Source of the DNA: Negaprion brevirostris
Taxonomy: Eukaryota
Length of the DNA stretch: 64,000 bases
Direction: 5' to 3'
Assembly: GCA_030324005.1 (NCBI GenBank)
Contig: JARDVH010000137.1
Span: 37,396,341 to 37,460,340, forward strand
The notes below the pieces were generated by a model. That model made no database searches. It saw only the letters and a program-made list of their open reading frames with translations, and was not told the DNA's origin. Below are positions 5,971-42,954 of the stretch, in pieces. The translations under genes were made by a program, and so were the position numbers. Within the stretch, counting starts at the first letter, position 1. Every line of letters begins with the position of its first letter.

Positions 5971-6206
5971 AGATAAAAGCAAATTACTGTGGATGCTGGA
6001 ATCTGAAACCAGAAGATAAAATGCTGGAAAATCTCACCAAGTCTGACAGCACTTGTAAGGAGAGAAAAGAGCTGACATTTTGAGTCTAGATGACCTTTTG
6101 TCAAAGACTTGACAAAGGGTCATCTAGACTCGTTGTCCGCTCTTTTCTCTCCTTGGTGATGCTGCCAAACCTGCTGAGATTTTCCAGCATTTTCTCTTTT
6201 TTGATT
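5971..6206. mobile_element. Palindromic Penelope-type non-autonomous insert with 14-bp TSD, nested in an older LINE 3' fragment
   Basis: Arms are reverse complements around ttgtcaaagacttgacaa; flanked by ttggaggtgacagt at 5957-5970 and 6207-6220; arm sequence is related to the termini of the PLE at 21715-23800. Confidence 0.8.
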
Positions 6207-7147
6207 TTGGAGGTGACAGTGTTCCAGTGCACCTGCTACCCTTTTTCTAGGTGGTGGAGACTGTGGATTTAGGACATACTGCCAAGGAAATCATGGCGAA
6301 TTGCTGTTATGCATCTGTAGCAAGTGCACCCTAGTACCATTAACTGAGTAAATCCAGATGGTGAAGAGGTTCGACTTTTGTTGCATTTCATCTATTGAAA
6401 AGAGTTGAAGTACACAAGCGTGCACTGTGCAAATGAATGTGTAGAAATTATATGCCAGCAATGTACCTCTTTTCAGTTTATTAATCCATCCACATCTATA
6501 TTCCCAGTTAGTCATGTCTGGCTCACTTTCGTTTTGCTTTGTTAAAGATACCATGTACGTGCAAGTTGCTGGTAACAGCTAGTGACTAACATATTGAACA
6601 CCACTAATGCATCATACATTACCAAGTGTACGTGCTCTCACCATTTGTTCAAGTTAAATTCCCATTGTGCCATATGGTGATTGCTGTTCTCTGACATGTA
6701 TATTGGCAAAACTTCTGAGAGATCCCACATTTTTGCCTGCTTGCGTGGAATTGTATCAGCTCCTTGATTGCAGTGGAAAATAATTTTGTGTAATATTTAA
6801 CATTTGGTATATTTTGAGTTCTGAATTTTGCGGAACAAGTTATACTTAAGAACTGGCTGTGTGATAGGGCTGTTAACTTAATTGCATGCAACTTGAGGGG
6901 TGAGCAGTGTATTTCACTATTTGATTCGCTGAAACAAATCTGCAGTCTGTGCATTGAGTATAGGTAGAAAGTGAACATGTCAACCAGATGTTCATATGTT
7001 GGTGCTGTAGAAGCCAGTGTCTCGAGCATGCCTAATTCCTGTTGATTTTGCTGAAGCAAAGTATCTGTAGTTTTTTTTTCCCATTATTAAACCACTTCAT
7101 AGGACTGGAGTAAGTCATTCAGCTCCATGAATCCAAATTCTGTTTGT

Positions 7148-15199: not shown

Positions 15200-15550
15200 A
15201 TAACCTCTATCATTTCTTTTAGCTATATCAGGAGTTAACAGGTCAATAAATGTCAGAAGGGGCTGTCTGTCACAGCTTACCCTCTGATTTCAGCTTCTCT
15301 GCCATTCATATCTTTTTATCCTGTCTGGACTGCCATTTCCCCTTGTTTTTGTGGCTGTGACTCATCTTTCATTCCCTCACTCTGCAGTATATCTCTCACT
15401 TTCTATGCCTGTTAGCTTTGACAAAGGTCATCTGGATTCGAAATGTCAGCTCTTTTTCTCTCCTTAGTGATGCTGCCAGACCTGCTGAGATTTTCCAGTA
15501 TTTTCTCTTTTGGTTTCAGATTCAGCAACTGCAGTAATTTGCTTTTATTC
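15200..15550 (+). mobile_element. Penelope-type terminal repeat with a decayed hammerhead core
   Basis: gctTTGACAAaggtcatctggattcGAAAtgtcagc followed by gatgctgccagacctgctgagattttccag, the same family as 5971-6206. Confidence 0.7.
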
Positions 15551-21714: not shown

Positions 21715-23800
21715 AACTGGAATGAAAATTCTGGAAGATCTCAGCAAGTCTAACAGTACCTATTGGGAGAGAATTGAGTCTACGTGTCCCTTTTTTTTTT
21801 TTGTCAGCNNNGACAGGAGCCCGTCCCCAGTGCCTAAACAGATTCGTTCTACCCACATTCGGTCCACGTCCACCACCTCCATGCCCCCCCCCCCACTTTT
21901 GATCTCTTCATCGAGAACTTGGTGTGACATTGGCTGTCTCAATTTCTATGTTCCTCTTAATCACTCTAATTTGTCGCCTTCCTAACTTGGTGCACTTTGC
22001 TCTCTTAGATCAAAACCCACTGACAAGGGCGGTGCTGTTATTGTTTGGCTTTCAGACCTCTACCTTGCAGAGGCTGAGTGCCAACTCTTGGATGCTTCCT
22101 CCTATGTCCCCCTGGACCACAACCCAACCACTGAACATCAAGCCCCCATTTCCACGACTGTCAATAACCTCACTCCTCTGGAGATCTTCCTTCCACAGCC
22201 CCCCAACCTCAGTTTCCCACTTCTACTTCCTTTTCCAAAATCCATAGACAGGATTGCCCTGGTAGACCTGTTGTGTCAGCCTGTTCCTGCCCCATAACTC
22301 ATTTCCTCCTCTTGAGTCCATTCTCTTTCCCTTTGTCCAGTCCCCTCCCACCTACATCCATGATTCCTCTGATGCCCTACGCCACATCAATGACTCCCAG
22401 TTTCCAGGCCCAAACACCATGGATGTTCAATCCTTCTACGTTGCCACTCCCCACCAGGATAGCCTCAGCTCTCTGATTCTTCCTCTAACAGATCTGAGCA
22501 ATCTCCATCCACCACCACTCCTTTGTCTGGCTGAACTAGCTCTCTTGCTCAACAGTTTGTCCTTTTTAACCCATCTCGCTTCCTCCAAATAAAAGGTGTG
22601 GCTATGGGACCTGCATGGGTCCCAGTTATGCCTGTTTCATTATGGTTTATGTGGAGATTCCCTGTTCCAGTCCTCCTCTGGACCTTCCCACAACTCCTTT
22701 ATCAGTACATCAACGACCATTTCGACGCTGTTTCATGCTCTTGTCTGGACCTGGAAAAAAATATCAATTTTGCTTCTAGTTTCCACCCTTCTATCACCTT
22801 CACATGGTGCACCTCTGACACTTCTCTTCCCTCCCTTGATTTCTGTCTCTATTTCTGGTGATAAATTATCCATTAGTTTCCATTGCAAGCTCACTGACTC
22901 CCATAACTACGTTGACTACAGTTCTTCATGCCCCACATCCTGTAAGGACTCCATCCCATTCTCTCAGTTCCTTCACCTCTGCCGTATCTGTTCTGATGAT
23001 GCCACTTTCCAAAGTAGTGCTACTAATATGTCTTCTGTCTTCCTCAATCGTGGTTGATGGGGCTCTCTACTACATCTAACCCATCCCCTGGGCCACTGGT
23101 CTCACCCCCTCCCTTCTCAGAACCAGGGTAGGGTTCTCCTTGTCCTCACTTTTCACCCCACCAGTCTCCACGTTCAAAGGATCATCCACTGCCGTTTCTG
23201 CCAACACCACGATGCCATTACTCGACCCATCTTCCTCTGATTCTTGTTAGCAAGCCGCAGGATGTCTCTCCGGGACATCCTGGTCCATTCCTCCGTCACA
23301 CCAACACCTCACCCCTGCCATGGCACCTTCCCATTCAGTCATAGAAGGTGCAACACCTGCCCCTTTACCTCCTCCCTGCTCACTATGCCAGGTCCTAAAC
23401 AGGTGAAGCAGTGCTTCAGATGCACCTCCTTTTAACCTGGTCTGTTGCGTTAGCTGCTCCCAATGCAGCCTAATCTACACTGGAGAGGCCAAATGCAGAC
23501 CGGGTGACCGCTTTGCTGAACACCTTCGGTCTGTCCGCAAGCAAGACCCAGACCTTCCTGTCACTTGCCACTTCAACACACCATCCTGCTGTCCTGTCCA
23601 CATGCAAAAGGCCAAGGACCAGCAATGTTGTAATGAACCCCAACACAAATTGGAGGAACAGCATCTACCACTCTGACAAACGGTCATCTACGCTTGAAAC
23701 ATTGGCTCTATTCTCTCCTCACAGATGCTATCAGACCTGTTGAGATTTTCCAGCATTTTCTGTTTTGTTTCAGATTCCAGCATCCGCACTATTTTGCTTC
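21715..23800 (+). mobile_element. Degenerate Penelope-like retroelement (RT + GIY-YIG) with inverted terminal repeats
   Basis: Frameshifted motifs KGVAMGP, YIND (YIDD-like), KLTDSHNYVDYSSS.PTSCKDSIPFSQFLHLCRICS, and GIY-YIG-like CSQCSLIYTGEAKCRPGDRFAEHLRSVRK. 21717-21790 is a reverse complement of about 23695-23765. Confidence 0.9.
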
Positions 23801-23849: not shown

Positions 23850-24047
23850 GATTGTGTGTTCTTTGTCCAAACAGCAACAATNNNNNNNNNNCTCCGAGCA
23901 TTTCCAGGAACACATACTGGACGTGTGCAAATAGTGGACCTTGCCAGCACAGAAAAGCCCCCAGTAGACATACCTGCACATGAAGGAGTTCTCAGCTGTA
24001 TTGCTTTAAACCTTCAGGGGACACGTATTGCCACTGCTTCAGAAAAG
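23850..24047 (+). CDS. WDR45B: WDR45B coding exon 6 (10-N gap inside): (G)[10 protein letters not shown][gap][52 protein letters not shown]
   Basis: ttccag acceptor at 23848-23849; donor aag|gtaagt at 24048. The N-run 23882-23891 stands in for about one codon. Confidence 0.95.
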
Positions 24048-24815: not shown

Positions 24816-26285
24816 TTAAAAATGGTTCGTGTGGACAATAATGAATAAATGTCTTGAAAGTGAAGCTTTTTTTTGCACCAAACCCCATTGTTCTGTTCTC
24901 CAAGCAACTAAGCAAAAGGTTATTGATCAGTAGTGTGACATTTCAATTTAATCCTCCTTGTACTGGAGCTAAAGTAATGGTTCCAAAGATCTTATCTTTC
25001 AGCAGTTGGTGAAGTTCAGAAGCAGTCATTATTTAATGGATTGAAAGTATTTCAAATTGACTTTTTCAGCCTCGTATTTAGGATTGATTTTTCAAAATTT
25101 GATCCGTCTTCTCTGTGCGCCCCTACCTGAAATGCTAGATATTAAAACTATTGAAATGGTCTGCCAATTAAACATGGGGTCAAGCATGATTGACCTGATG
25201 TAAATCAACCCTCTCATCTCTGTATTCTCCCCCCACCCACCTCGCTAATTTGCTGATTTGTGGACCATCGCTTGGTTTCTTACAGCATTCTTCTTCCTTT
25301 TTTCTTCCTCCTTTCTCCTCATGCCATCTGAACCTCTTTTTGTACACCAGAAAGGATGGTTTCACATTTTTGAGGAAACACAAAGCTACATCCCAGTATT
25401 GATCCAAACAGATAATGGCATACTGTCTTGGTATACCAGTTTGCTGTATCTTCCTGGGAAGGATGGTGAATGCCTAGATTTTAGGCACATTCTATATTTG
25501 GGAAGCTGTGTTTCCAGTGGGAACAAAGTGTGTGCTTTCATTCAAAGTGGAAGGAGCCAGTAGACAAATGTGTTGATGCTGGAAATCTGAAACAAAATAA
25601 AAAGTGCTAGAAATACCCAGCAGGTCACATGCTTGGTAAAGAGCTCATTATGACATCTGTCAAAAGTGGAAAATTATTACCAACCAGCAGTATTTCAAAA
25701 GGAAGAGACATTGACATCACACCTCCCCAAATACAGTTAACTCAACAGTCCTTTAATTGGATTGCAGGAGACAGATATCTAAAAACATGTGATATTACCA
25801 TGAAAAGTAAGTAGCAGACAACCAAGGAAATTAATCAGTGAAGTATGAATAGCTGAAAATGAGGAAATTAAGTGGATGGACAGGAAAGCCTGAAATTGAT
25901 GGTAGAAAAAAAGTATGTTCATACCCAAGAGTACAAATTGCCAACATGGTTGTGTTCGCCGCCTTGTTGAAGTTTGAATATAATTATACAGATTTGCTTA
26001 TCTGCACTATTGTAATTCAACAATGAAATGAAACGTCCCTTACTTGAAAATCTTGGTTAAAAACTTGCCCCCGTTAATTGTTATCTAAGTATACATAATG
26101 TCAAGATAATTCATAGAAGAATCTGCATCAATTGACAGACGGCCATGACTTGGTTTGTTAGAAGCTGTAAATTTTAATTTTAAANNNNNNNNNNNNNNNN
26201 NNNNNNNNNNNNNNNNNNNNNNNNNNNNNNNNNNNNNNNNNNNNNNNNNNNNNNNNNNNNNNNNNNNNNNNNNNNNNNNNNNNNN

Positions 26286-35590: not shown

Positions 35591-35864
35591 NNNNNNNNNN
35601 NNNNNNNNNNNNNNNNNNNNNNNNNNNNNNNNNNNNNNNNNNNNNNNNNNNNNNNNNNNNNNGGTTGCAGAATGTCTTAACATGAATTACTAATTCACAT
35701 TAATTTTAGCAGTTATTACAAACTGCCTCTGCTGTTTTGGTTAGACTGAACTACCAGCCAATTCAATTTATTTTGAGCAAAAACATTGAATTCTCAAACT
35801 GATGTGAGGAGAAGTTTATTCTGAAATGCAAACAAATGAATGATAACTTTGTACTGAATAACCT

Positions 35865-37479: not shown

Positions 37480-37601
37480 TTTAGCATCCGCGAGCTTCCT
37501 TCCAAAATACTTCAGCTCTAAATGGAGTTTCTCCAAGTTTCAGGTTCCTTCTGGTTCGCCTTGTATCTGTGCCTTCGGTACTGAACCCAACGCTGTTGTG
37601 G
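37480..37601 (+). CDS. WDR45B: WDR45B coding exon 9 (122 bp): (S)[40 protein letters not shown](A)
   Basis: ttgcag acceptor; donor gtgg|gtaagc. Confidence 0.97.
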
Positions 37602-39631
37602 GTAAGCCCTGCTGTTTTGCATCTGAGTGATAATTATGTAAATTCTAACAGAGGTCCACAAAACACTTGTGGTGTTAGTATCTTCATTGCACAGTAATTA
37701 CTATGTGATTTCTAGTTATTCATTCACTAAAAACTTTGGCAGAATCAAAACTCCTCGCTCTGGGAGGAGAAAGGAAGCAAAATAAAGTCCTGTTCCTATG
37801 TTTAAAAACTGGCCTGGGATTTCGAATACAAATTTTGCCAATTGCTAGAATGTGACGCCTAATTGGAGATTGCAGAAGCAGATTTAAACTGATGGGCTCA
37901 ATATTGTTCAAGGAATAAATACCCTTTTTTTTTCTTTTAATCTGCCTGTTATAATTTCAACATCTATCATCAAAGTAAGCAGCTTCATAACTACCCCACT
38001 TGTTCCATGACACAGTCTGTGTTTACAATTCCCAATTCGTAGCAGGACTAAACTTTTTCTTTCTTGAGTCTCAGCCTTTGCAGTGGGATAGCTATTGGGA
38101 ATTAGGCATGAGGCGCCAGAGTGTGGCAACTAGGGGATTTTCACAGTAACTTCATTGCAGTGTTAATGTAAGCCTACTTATGACACTAAAACTTAAGCAA
38201 ACTTATCAATAAAGTCAAGTTGATGTATTTTTTAAATTCACCTAGCCAGTTTTTATAAAACCTTTTTATTCAGATGTACAGAATCTTCATTTTTAGCATA
38301 AAGAATTACTGTTGAATGAGCAAATAGGTAATCAACACAGTTAGACTCTTCAGGAAAACTTGTGGTATCTCGAATCAAATCTCCCAACTTAATCCCCTGG
38401 TTTGAGAAGCTAATTTGCAAAGACGTTTTTCTTGTGATTCTTTCTCGTTTTCTTTAAGTTTGAATTTCTGAAATTGCAGCCATATTAATCAAAAGCGATT
38501 ATATAACTTTGTACAATATATCCCCTTTGTTCTTGCTATATTGTTAGGTATTAGCTGTCGAATCATGTCCCAGCAATGCAATTTTCCCTTGAATGTTATA
38601 ACGTTATTCTTAAATTATTTCTTAAACAACTCTTTGCAAGATAGTAATTTTTTTCTAGATAGTCATTTGTCAGTACAGAACTTGAGTATTGCTGGAAAAA
38701 AAAGACATGTTGAAGCTTCTCATTTTGAACTCATCAGGACACTTTAAGAATACCAATGAGGAAAACCATTTATACTGCATGAGAAGAGAATGCCAAGTGA
38801 TTGGCAAGTGGACTCTTAATAATAGTGGTGTTGCCATGGGGAATGCATTAATTGGTGGTGACTGATAGATAACTGCCAAGAATTGTTTGATATTTAAACC
38901 AGGCAACTTGACCCTGATTGGTTTGAGTATGAGCTGGTTGGGTTACCTTGTCCATTGCAAACAGTAGCTGAGACATGCTGATACTGAGTGCCAGTTTTTG
39001 GGACATTAGCTGAGCAGCACATTGGCAGTGTCCAACATTGGATGTGATTCCACAATTGGGCAACGTTTGTTAAATAATCCTCAGTGTGCTAAGAATTATA
39101 CTGACAGCCATTTTAAGATTTTGATTTGATTTTATTATTTTCATTGTATTAGTATACAGTGAAAAGTACTGTTTCTTGTGTACTATACAGACAAAACATA
39201 CCGTTCATAGAGAAGGAAAGGAGAGAGTGGAGAATGTACTGTTAGTCGTTAAGAGATTGAATTAAGCATTGTTAGAGTTAGAATGAAGTTTTAAAAACAT
39301 AAAGCGAAAATAAAAGGATTAGTGGGTGTGTTGGGCACAGCTTGCAAGAAGTCGTCATGCTCAGGTACCATCTTGGATCATTTGGGCTTGTGGTGTGGTG
39401 CATTTACGTGTACTGGAAGCTGTAAAATATATATATATAACAAAATACACAAGATTCTGTTTGTTTTTTTTTTGCAGACAAAATAAGCAGACAGCCATTT
39501 GCTGGTTCATCCCCAGGACAATGCCTTGAACAATCAGGGTCAAGCTGTTTGGTTTAAATAGCAAACCATGCTTGGCAGGTATCGGTCAGTCACCAACAGC
39601 TGGTGTATTCTTCATGGCAATGCCTCTATCA

Positions 39632-39840
39632 TGATGTGATGCTGTTGGACTGGGGTAAACACAGCAGTAAGAAGTCTCTCAACGCCAGGTTAAAGTCCAA
39701 CAGACTTATTTGGTAGCAAAAGCCACTANNNNNNNNNNNNNNNNTCAGATTCACCTGACGAAGGATCAGCGCTCTGAAAGCTAGTGACGTTTGCTACCAA
39801 ATAAACCTGTTGGACTTTAACTTGGTGTTGAGGCATCTTA
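39632..39840. mobile_element. Palindromic Penelope-type insert carrying a hammerhead motif, with 14-bp TSD
   Basis: 39668-39728 is a reverse complement of 39782-39840; flanks caatgcctctatca (39618-39631) and caatgcttctatca (39841-39854). Confidence 0.8.
39752..39786 (+). ncRNA. Minimal type I hammerhead ribozyme motif (stem II decayed)
   Basis: CAC-CUGACGA-A-GGAUC-AGC-GCUCU-GAAA-G-CUA-GUG: conserved cores, 3-bp stem I, palindromic AGCU at stem III, NUH = CUA. Confidence 0.65.
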
Positions 39841-39919
39841 CAATGCTTCTATCAATCAGGGTCCACTTGTCTTTTCATAGTGTATAAATTGGTGTTTGCC
39901 CCTTGTACTGTCTGTTCAG

Positions 39920-40150
39920 GGATGTGGGCTGGTACCCATTTGATACCCATCCCTAATTGCCCTTCAGCTGAGGGCATTTGAGAATCAACCACATTGTGTC
40001 TGGAGTCGCACGTACACCAGACCAGATAAGAGAAGCAGACTTCCTTCCATAAAGGACATTATTGAACCAGGTGGGTTGTTACGACGATTGACAATGGCTC
40101 CATGGTCAAGATTAAAGTTAATTCCAGATTTTTAATTAATTCAAATTTTG
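39920..40150 (-). mobile_element. Short non-autonomous relative of the tRNA-headed LINE (leader joined to tail)
   Basis: Shares ttccttcc..aaaggacattattgaaccag leader with 520-600 and 8020-8090; ends in a gggatggg...aaatg tail. Confidence 0.55.
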
Positions 40151-41349
40151 TATCAAACAGCATGCAAAGTGTCCTGTTGACTATAAATGAAAACCTTCAA
40201 TGTGTTTTTTTTCAAATAATATTCTTTCACCAACGAGTTTAACAGAATTAAAACAATCAGACATATGAAGCAGGCAGAATGTGCTTCCCCACTGTGTTAA
40301 CTCAACATTGTTACAATTATGTAGCTCTTGTGGTTTCTCCCGATCTGGTTAATGCTCTACGTGTACAAAGCTGACTGGAAAAATCTGAGTTTCTATTTGA
40401 CTAGGAAGGCTTCAGGTCAAATCCACATCCAACAACCTGCTTTGAAAACCATGCTCACGTTTTAACAACTGACAATTCCACACTGGTTGAGGCAACCACA
40501 GTGTAAAAACAAAATGTCATTCTCCCATCTCCCAGTGATATCTGAATCTTCTTTGAAAAACACTAGGACCAAGAGCTGTATCACTGCCAACATCTCTAAC
40601 TTGGACCAAACCCTATTGGCTTCATTGAAATCATCCATTAACTTTTTTGAGCTGTATTGTTGACAGCGTAATTGACAAAAACATTACCTTTGCCCAACTT
40701 TGGTAGCAAAGGTTTCAAAAACAAAGGAAAATCATCCTTCAGTCTGAATTGCAATCATTTACCACACTTGCTTTCAGTCCTGAAGCCACTTTTTAAAAAA
40801 AAATGTTAAGCTTATGCTGATCCTCCAACTGCAGGCCTCAGTTCTGTTAACCAGCCTTTCATGTGATTGAAAATCTATGAACCTTGCTCTGTGGGACTAC
40901 TTTGTTTGATGAGAATGTTGACCCAGTGACTTTTTTTCAGTGCTGGGCTAACAGTTGGCTGAATGGATGATAAAACGTTTCATTGCAATATCAAGATACC
41001 ATTTGTACTGAGTGAACGATGTTTGCCTGGCATTGCTCACTAAACAAACTCATTGACTGACATACTACTTAAACTGACCGATTGAGACAGTCTGGACAGA
41101 TTGAAAACTGTTAAGAGATTGAAATATGTATGCATGTGGATAATATGCACTTTGTTACAATTCCTGTGTCTTGCTCTGCCTCATGCTTCCTATTACTTCA
41201 AAAACATAGGAATTCAACTAAGAAATTACACTTAATCAAGAAACTGAATCAAATCNNNNNNNNNNAATCACTCTGCTTCAATCCAAATCTCTTGGCTGTC
41301 ATTTTATTGCAGTAACTGAATTTTTTAAAATTGAAAACGGTAGCATTGT

Positions 41350-41600
41350 TTTCAAGTGGTTAGCACCAGGGAGCCAGGTTCAATTCCAGCCTCTGATCAC
41401 TGTGTGTGGAGTTTGCTCATTCTCCCTGTGTTTGCAGGAGTTTCTCCTGGTGCTCCGATTTGCTCCCACAGCCCAAAGATGTGCAGGTTAGGTGGATTAG
41501 CAGGGTAGATATGTGGGGTTATGGGAATAAGGCCTGGGTGGGATTGTGGTCAGTGCAGAATTGATGGGCCAAATGGCCTGCAGTGTAGGAATTCAATGAT
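41350..41600 (+). mobile_element. HE1-like V-SINE
   Basis: B-box ggttcaattcc, V-domain, CR1-type tail. Confidence 0.8.
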
Positions 41601-41834
41601 TTTTGGAATCTATTTCAATGAATGTTCACGATTTTCAATAGTTTTAAAAAAAACTGCTTGAGGAAAACAGATGAATGGATTACAGCATCTCTGTTTTAGT
41701 TGTTTATGCTGAAGACCAGTTTGCCTAGAGGTGTTTTCTAAGCCTGAAGCACGTGTTCCCTTGTGCTGCAATATTGGAATTTTTGTGATTTGTTTTTAAC
41801 CAGTTAGTGAATGTATTTTAGTATTTGTCTTTTT

Positions 41835-42400
41835 AGAACAAGAGACCTATATTGATATAGCATTTCTCCCAACCAGCTCAAAGCACTTTACAGTCAATGA
41901 AATACATTTTTGTAGTGTAGACAACATAGCAGACAACTTTTTTGCACATCAGTCTCCCACAAATCAGTAATGTGTTAATGAAATATTGAAGAATAAATAC
42001 AATGCCCCTGTCTCACTGTGTGTGCCTCTATATGCCCTTCTCCGATCAGAACCTTCCACACACCTGACGAAGGAACAGTGTTTCTGAAAGCTTGTGGGTT
42101 CACTAACCAATAAACTGGTTGGACTTTAACCTGGTGTTGTGAGGTTTTTTACTATGTTTACCTCCGTCTAACGCCAGCATCTCCACATCACTGAAATAGT
42201 GCCACGATACGGTCACCTTAATAGACCGATGGGGCTTCAATTTATATGTCGTGCGAGAGACAGCATCTCCAACAGTGCAGCACTATCATAGTACTGCACT
42301 GGAGTGCAACTTGGATTTTTTGTGCTCATGTCCTGGCATGGTACTTGAATCCACAAAATTTTGAACCAGACACATTTTCTACCATCTGAGTCATGGTTGC
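41835..42400 (-). mobile_element. Ancient Deu-domain (SacSINE1/AmnSINE-like) tRNA SINE interrupted by a Penelope-type arm at about 42010-42190
   Basis: Deu-like hairpin cagtgcagcactatcatagtactgcactg; gaaatagtgcca; B-box-like ggattcaagtacc on minus; tail caaagcactttacagtcaatgaa. Confidence 0.65.
42061..42096 (+). ncRNA. Minimal type I hammerhead ribozyme motif
   Basis: CAC-CUGACGA-AGGAAC-AGU-GUUUCU-GAAA-G-CUU-GUG: stem II can form 6 bp (one G-U), palindromic AGCU, NUH = CUU. Followed by the same arm sequence as 39790-39840. Confidence 0.7.
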
Positions 42401-42847
42401 CGCTGTTAAGGTAGTTTCACATTTTAAACATTATCAAGCAATACATGTTCTACAATAAGTGCATGGGAAACACTTAATTTATTATTATATTCATATCTAC
42501 ACATTGTTTCTATCCTGTGTCTATCATGATTTTTCTTTTGAAGTTTGAAGCTTATTGCTTTTAACACTCGGAAAATTTGTTGTGTTGATCACGATGAGGC
42601 ACTTCAATGCAAAGTTTGCTTACTCAAAGTTACAATTCCACATGAGAAGTGTCTATGAAAGTCATGCATGTGTTGTATAATTCTAATTAAACATATAGCA
42701 GTATTAACCAACCAAATGATTTCCTATTTTGTTTTTGTTCTTTTGAGATTATTTTAACCTTATTTAACAGTTTTGTGATATGAAATTTAAATAAACTAAT
42801 TTTCTTTAGGAATAACATTCACAGTAATCTGGTCTGATTTGTTGCAG

Positions 42848-42954
42848 CGATTTGTGCAGATGGCAGCTACTACAAATTTTTGTTCAACACCAAAGGTGAA
42901 TGCACCCGGGATGTCTATGCCCAGTTCCTGGAAATGACAGATGATAAGATATGA
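42848..42954 (+). CDS. WDR45B: WDR45B last coding exon 10 (107 bp CDS): (A)[34 protein letters not shown]
   Basis: ttgcag acceptor at 42846-42847; TGA at 42952-42954. Confidence 0.97.

Follow-up and report, generated by a model that had tools for sequence, protein, structure and literature searches.

The two hammerhead motifs in the last coding intron of WDR45B are very probably ribozyme-carrying end pieces of a Penelope-like retrotransposon (PLE) present in high copy number, left there by two separate 5'-truncated insertions, likely inert and removed with the intron. Each motif was found to be part of a 3' end fragment (pseudo-LTR, pLTR) of such an element. The window, that is the whole stretch of DNA analysed, is 64,000 nt long. 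The pair is of little import as it stands: these are 2 copies among at least 14,000, and the motif class was described in 2014.

The motifs and their host intron

The host gene was identified as WIPI3/WDR45B on the + strand, with exons matching PDB WIPI3 (E 8e-27 and 1e-17). The penultimate coding exon (37480..37601, +) has AG/GT boundaries and an in-frame translation, and the final coding exon up to the stop codon lies at 42848..42954 (+; PDB WIPI3 match E 1e-17). Both insertions are in the last coding intron, 37602..42847 (+; 5,246 nt), which has GT..AG ends and a phase that fits the next exon. By human exon numbering we take the exon at 37480..37601 to be exon 9 and the intron at 37602..42847 to be intron 9. 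Nine WDR45B coding exons were located in the window, where exon 1 was sought and not found. Runs of N at 23,882-23,891, 26,185-26,285 and 35,591-35,662 lie inside three WDR45B coding exons, so the assembly's gene model is incomplete.

Copy 1 (minimal type I hammerhead motif 1, 39751..39787, +, predicted cut after 39,783) comprises CAC at 39,752-54, CUGACGA at 39,755-61, an extra A at 39,762, stem II at 39,763-67/39,771-75 (G-U, G-C, A-U, a U x C mismatch and C-G), GAAA at 39,776-79, AGCU at 39,779-82, A as N17 at 39,783 and GUG at 39,784-86. Copy 2 (minimal type I hammerhead motif 2, 42061..42096, +, predicted cut after 42,093) comprises CAC at 42,061-63, CUGACGA at 42,064-70, an extra A at 42,071, a stem II of 4 pairs of which the first is G-U, GAAA at 42,086-89, AGCU, U as N17 at 42,093 and GUG at 42,094-96. 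The initial annotation had placed both motifs on the sense strand of the last WDR45B intron, and this was confirmed in the sequence, as were the parts it had listed for each (stem I CAC/GUG, CUGACGA, stem II, GAAA and AGCU) and the defects it had pointed out (U rather than C before GAAA in both, and the stem II mismatch of copy 1). Its assignment to Penelope-type minimal type I hammerheads also stood: neither copy has lost a catalytic core position or the AGCU palindrome, and in both the core reads CUGANGA...GAAA with U16.1 and N17, an extra nucleotide lies between A9 and stem II, and positions 15.2-16.2 are palindromic with no loop III. The G10.1-C11.1 pair of the PLE minimal hammerhead is a G10.1-U11.1 pair in copy 1 and in copy 2. 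G-U at 10.1-11.1 slows hammerhead cleavage, and U at N17, as in copy 2, makes a slow cleavage triplet.

The loose pattern CTGANGAN{8,30}GAAA was present at chance level in the window (5 observed vs 5.4 expected). The full motifs were above chance, with 14,162 exact core matches genome-wide to a pattern fitting both copies, a minimum for the family, vs 1 for a backwards-read control pattern. An Rfam search had been proposed as a check; a scan of the window and of 39,600-42,300 returned no hammerhead match at E<=10, which is weak evidence where minimal motifs without most of helix III are concerned. The likeness between copies 1 and 2 continues beyond the ribozyme into a common tail (79% over 100 nt). 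This shared repeat tail goes beyond what had been annotated, as does the finding that copy 1 lies next to a 16-N gap and to a second, inverted version of its tail.

As described in the available portion of PMC4209133, PLE minimal hammerheads are like the window motifs in their CUGANGA core, extra nucleotide ahead of stem II, short stem I, palindromic 15.2-16.2 and lack of loop III, and also occur as thousands of mostly solo copies from truncated elements with some close opposite-strand pairs. Unlike them, the window motifs have a stem II of 4-5 pairs and carry G10.1-U11.1 in place of the conserved G-C, and the window's two copies do not form the two ends of a single element. The 14,162 exact copies compare with 4,000 in coelacanth and 9,000 in Xenopus given in that portion, under differing search rules. 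The pair also resembles the amniote intronic hammerheads in RECK, CTCL and DTNB (PMC6155905, in part) as sense-strand type I motifs in a host intron. Those are rare, deeply conserved and drawn with tertiary contacts, whereas the window pair belongs to a repeat with many thousand copies, has degraded stems and gives no hint of being conserved past retention in close relatives. The literature search found no paper joining WDR45B with a hammerhead and no shark Penelope hammerhead; the species table of bioRxiv 10.64898/2026.07.22.740005, with one chondrichthyan among its species, may already cover the family.

The parent family and the two insertions

The genome searched amounted to 2.69 Gb, and a first look gave 1,713 and 1,406 candidates for the two copies and 24,676 genome-wide for the element endonuclease. 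In longer copies the stop codon of a GIY-YIG frame lies 200-250 nt upstream of the hammerhead motif (Pfam E 1.9e-4, score under the curated cut-off), and fragments of reverse transcriptase (RT) matched RVT_1 at E 0.004 and 0.03, likewise under the curated cut-off. A CX4CXXC linker was seen in 9 of 20 fetched loci. RT followed by a C-terminal GIY-YIG upstream of the pLTR is present, in broken frames, in three copies (L146, L144 and L018); neither domain is in the two window fragments. Of the 20 loci chosen for long frames, none had an intact ORF of full length, and most of the frames crossed N gaps. Judged from sequence, the element order of RT, linker, GIY-YIG and hammerhead-bearing end is that of Neptune/Nematis-type Penelope-like elements, and RT, a CX2-5CXXC linker and GIY-YIG at the C terminus are features that the longer copies have in common with EN+ Neptune/Nematis PLEs in the consulted sections of PMC8557442. 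Unlike full EN+ PLEs the window holds end fragments of 176-209 bp only, and the family is placed no more narrowly than as Neptune/Nematis type.

Among 45 distinct copies the pair 10.1-11.1 was G-C in 21 and G-U in 21, with the adjacent pair G-C in 43. From this 21:21 split we infer that the C-to-T change before GAAA reflects decay of a methylated CpG, which would later have turned C11.1 into U. In an alignment that took in copies with a 13-nt stem II only, 90% of cells in stems I and II were paired across the family vs 31-47% when slid, and covariation was not above shuffles (50/500). C11.1 together with the stem I GUG is kept at 6,496 sites. The family is thus a resource, as these cores permit testing for depletion from introns on the sense strand; such depletion of minimal hammerheads would reveal whether they ever cut host transcripts.

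Comparison of the window with long element copies gave three matches only, at 39,631-39,728 (-), 39,751-39,841 (+) and 42,015-42,190 (+). The first two make up insertion 1 (39,632-39,840), which consists of an inverted, 5'-truncated copy of the pseudo-LTR tail (39632..39728, -; 82-86% to the long element copies L146/L150), a 16-N gap at the fold-back junction (39729..39744) and a sense arm, a pseudo-LTR fragment assigned by tree to subfamily A (39745..39840, +; 83-91% to L146/L150). The inverted arm is 88% complementary to 39,782-39,832, that is, to the 3' part of motif 1 onwards. Insertion 1 is flanked by a 14-bp target-site duplication with 1 mismatch (left 39618..39631, right 39841..39854, by alignment), and a duplication of at least 14 bp was reached by 1 of 278 random window pairs. 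It splits the second arm of an older inverted repeat, and the arm resumes afterwards. The older element has arms at 38,805-38,920 and 39,531-39,869, 79% complementary and 610 nt apart, and is probably MITE-like; its left arm (38805..38920), recovered as inverted repeats I1, I18 and I19 and by gapped alignment, is without the insertion. Insertion 2 (42015..42190, +) is a solo 176-bp 3' end fragment, 84-85% identical to L146/L150 over 177 nt and assigned by tree to subfamily B. A candidate duplication for insertion 2 (41,979-41,988/42,192-42,201, 10 bp) was rejected, being at chance level (27/278) and 26 nt off the boundary.

In a tree with 57 other copies, copy 1 and copy 2 fell on opposite sides of a long 100/100 branch; 1 of 58 fetched copies was left out since the anchor pattern failed. 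Mean identity was 91% to the own subfamily set and 68% to the other; because the sets were collected by similarity to each copy, part of the identity within a set follows from that selection. Between the two insertions neither a PLE protein match nor a PLE DNA match was found, and no target duplication surrounds the whole two-motif unit. Given the different subfamilies, the 14-bp duplication belonging to insertion 1 and the lack of an element body between them, the two motifs, on sequence grounds, arrived as separate insertions. Insertion 1 shows 5' truncation, an inverted 5' copy and a target duplication, and insertion 2 shows truncation. Inverted pLTR insertions with 5' truncation, an inverted 5' copy, target duplication and fold-back assembly gaps are described in PMC8557442 and PMC3846280, each in the part available. 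A GIY-YIG cut would have primed reverse transcription that got no further than the 3' end of the element RNA, and at insertion 1 a second, inverted tail copy would have been made at the 5' side.

That the 2.3 kb constitute one mobile unit, whether a full-length element in decay or a piece of host DNA caught between two direct pseudo-LTRs as in Adineta Pen3a, has a negligible probability. The order of inverted pLTR, direct pLTR, spacer and direct pLTR resembles a layout in the consulted part of PMC3846280, and the spacing is near element length. Against this, the spacer holds no trace of RT or endonuclease, the best duplication around the whole unit is 8 bp, off-boundary and at chance level, insertion 1 has a duplication of its own and lies inside an older repeat arm, which continues on the far side, and the two ends come from different subfamilies. 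A non-LTR retrozyme was also considered and rejected, as there are no tandem hammerhead units, the spacer is unrelated intron DNA and the shared repeat is about 100 nt. Non-LTR retrozymes (PMC7229834; bioRxiv 10.64898/2026.07.22.740005; both in part) are alike in carrying type I hammerheads related to PLE ends; according to the same portions their hammerheads in vertebrates cleave better as dimers, and 42-44% of copies in Xenopus are intronic. Retrozymes are head-to-tail units of 51-972 bp, unlike the window motifs, which are 2.3 kb apart with unrelated intron between them. An abundant SINE-like repeat is present between the two motifs at 41,366-41,600 and at about ten other places in the window.

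Close pairs, relatives and the identity of copy 1

The frequency of close pairs was assessed in 864 kb of three contigs (739 kb sequenced), of which 464 kb were centred on the window, so that this is not a random draw; the stretch around the window was sampled because of this very pair. A profile search returned 56 pieces, of which 39 cover the core and 15 of these 39 have it intact. Three same-strand pairs of intact cores lie within 5 kb in the 864 kb, namely the window pair and two others (4.2 and 3.5 kb), with no element body between the members of those two. Counting exact matches only, same-strand pairs no more than 2,309 nt apart have a Poisson expectation of about 86 for the genome, which becomes about 925 with an extrapolated 46,600 cores. 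Minus-then-plus inverted (fold-back) pairs like insertion 1 numbered 15 in the 864-kb sample. Two copies 2.3 kb apart are thus no excess over the abundance of the repeat. On the - strand of contig C42, cores at 50,188,471 and 50,191,947, 3.5 kb apart, each have a perfect 5-bp stem II and a 3-bp stem I, with no element body between them. Contig C1 has same-strand, C11.1-bearing pairs at 26,224,804/26,224,956 (- strand) and 27,692,651/27,693,176, 152 and 525 nt apart, and these are far better candidates for a dimer or a retrozyme-like unit than the window pair.

With respect to relatives, insertion 1 was present in all 3 other organisms, whose intron is 3-4.5% diverged and whose contigs enter the insertion by 32-33 nt from the unique flank. 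Insertion 2 was seen in at least 2 of the 3, with contigs entering it by 21-47 nt. The contigs, from four sequencing runs, break at both insertions, before the cores and the 16-N gap. Their presence in relatives indicates that both insertions predate those splits; as retention at 3-4.5% divergence is expected for neutral DNA, it neither supports nor refutes a function. Contig joints that seem to skip the 2.3 kb (39,811 to 42,123 and similar) were set aside, since they join the copies' shared tail and are best explained by other genomic copies.

The stretch 39,745-39,821 is identical over 77 nt to locus L032 (C137:36,814,061), which lies 622 kb off on the same contig in different flanks. The identity takes in the rare stem II change and the junction, whereas a comparison of the two arms within insertion 1 shows differences at 7 of 59 positions. 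Other copies have exact common runs of up to 71 nt, so the 77-nt identity is not extreme. Gene conversion could account for it, as could descent from a shared source or a join made in assembly at the gap; with such a join the letters of motif 1 would not be this locus's own. A remobilised fold-back subfamily carrying the copy 1 junction was considered and rejected; the junction 20-mer occurs at 12 sites, and among 10 of them L032 alone has the same stem II variant and the same tail. A variant-pattern search for the stem II type of copy 1 gave 0 matches.

Predicted folding and activity

Folding was computed from equilibrium nearest-neighbour energies, excluding tertiary contacts, proteins and the 16 hidden bases. 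A dimer of the two copies is possible on paper: AGCU would serve as helix III, and the 3-bp stems I would cross, their arms being cross-compatible. The designed dimer of copies 1 and 2 came to -5.5 kcal/mol, a loss of 6.6 relative to separate folding of the two pieces, while three dimers of natural C11.1-bearing copies came to -16.5 to -19.3 kcal/mol (a loss of 2.2-2.7) and that of one other G-U copy to -8.9 kcal/mol. The duplex of the inverted arm with copy 1 is predicted at -78.9 kcal/mol. In native context the probability of pairing with the inverted arm was 0.83 for U16.1, 0.98 for the cleavage nucleotide and 0.99-1.0 for the 3' stem I arm, and the stem I probability of copy 1 was 0.0. At the gap-free sister locus L032 the hairpin covers GAAA as well. 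For motif 2, the stem II probability was about 0.6 in isolation and 0.03-0.27 in longer context, and that of stem I was at most 0.02, falling below 0.01 in longer context. Neither of the two motifs was more stable than its shuffled sequences, with z values of 0.96 and -0.04, against -1.72 for an intact copy. On these models the active hammerhead form is predicted to be disfavoured for both motifs.

The inverted arm would be transcribed first, before motif 1 and 2.3 kb ahead of motif 2. Its predicted partners in motif 1 are U16.1, the cleavage nucleotide and the 3' arm of stem I, so that the dimer could not form. This order of synthesis should favour the hairpin kinetically as well. Motif 2 would remain a lone minimal motif with no helix III, a form that was inactive in published tests.

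The initial annotation had suggested that the two motifs complement each other in cis. On this reading an AGCU strand swap on the nascent pre-mRNA would cut the last intron and free a 2,310-nt RNA, perhaps with the help of the element's protein or of a helicase opening the hairpin. In its favour, the cores are intact and on the same strand, the stem I arms are compatible and the insertions are common to relatives. We nevertheless consider it very improbable. The local hairpin stands at -78.9 vs -5.5 kcal/mol for the dimer, which is itself 6.6 kcal/mol less stable than the separate folds, C11.1 is present in neither copy, copy 1 has a stem II mismatch and copy 2 the slow triplet with U at N17. 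Moreover, such same-strand pairs are expected by tens to hundreds, and these two are separate insertions from different subfamilies. Should the window pair cleave in cis after all, two unrelated insertions would have come together as a ribozyme that acts on a gene of autophagy.

A dimer model and protein assistance have been published for this class of motif, in the parts of the sources available. The statement that such motifs cleave efficiently as dimers proved too strong, since the portion of PMC4209133 available gives no cleavage for a single minimal motif and low cleavage for dimers and trimers. In the accessible text of PMC11167929, a lizard PLE hammerhead required the protein of the element for cleavage and was dispensable for insertion in vitro, and no RNA-seq reads ended at its cut site. 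A latent form of the cis-dimer, switched on if an element protein or a helicase opened the hairpin and then cutting the intron and freeing the 2,310-nt RNA, is likewise given very little credence. Were it true, host intron cleavage would come under the control of retroelement activity, given the tens to hundreds of same-strand pairs in each genome.

Residual activity of motif 2 alone, which would act in trans with a second transcript of WDR45B or with another copy that is transcribed and would nick a small fraction of pre-mRNAs, was judged just as improbable; the nick would fall 754 nt ahead of the 3' splice site and have no selected role. Motif 2 has no inverted arm beside it, its isolated stem II probability is about 0.6 and thousands of copies are potential partners. 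Standing against these points are the probabilities in longer context (stem II 0.03-0.27, stem I <0.01), a dimer of just 4+3+3 pairs at very low concentration and the inactivity of single minimal motifs in the available part of PMC4209133. The preferred reading remains that of two likely inert PLE ends spliced out with the intron.

Further repeats were noted elsewhere in the window. At 22,311-23,580 (+), in an earlier WDR45B intron, lies a remnant of a second, more distant Penelope-like element that matches the parent family weakly (RT E 3e-4, GIY-YIG E 0.01); no core motif was seen nearby, and Pfam gave no match there. A short hairpin-forming repeat family, likely a MITE, occurs at 5,973-6,201, 15,416-15,548 and 23,671-23,799, and the copy at 6,068-6,143 has a sub-threshold Rfam miRNA match.
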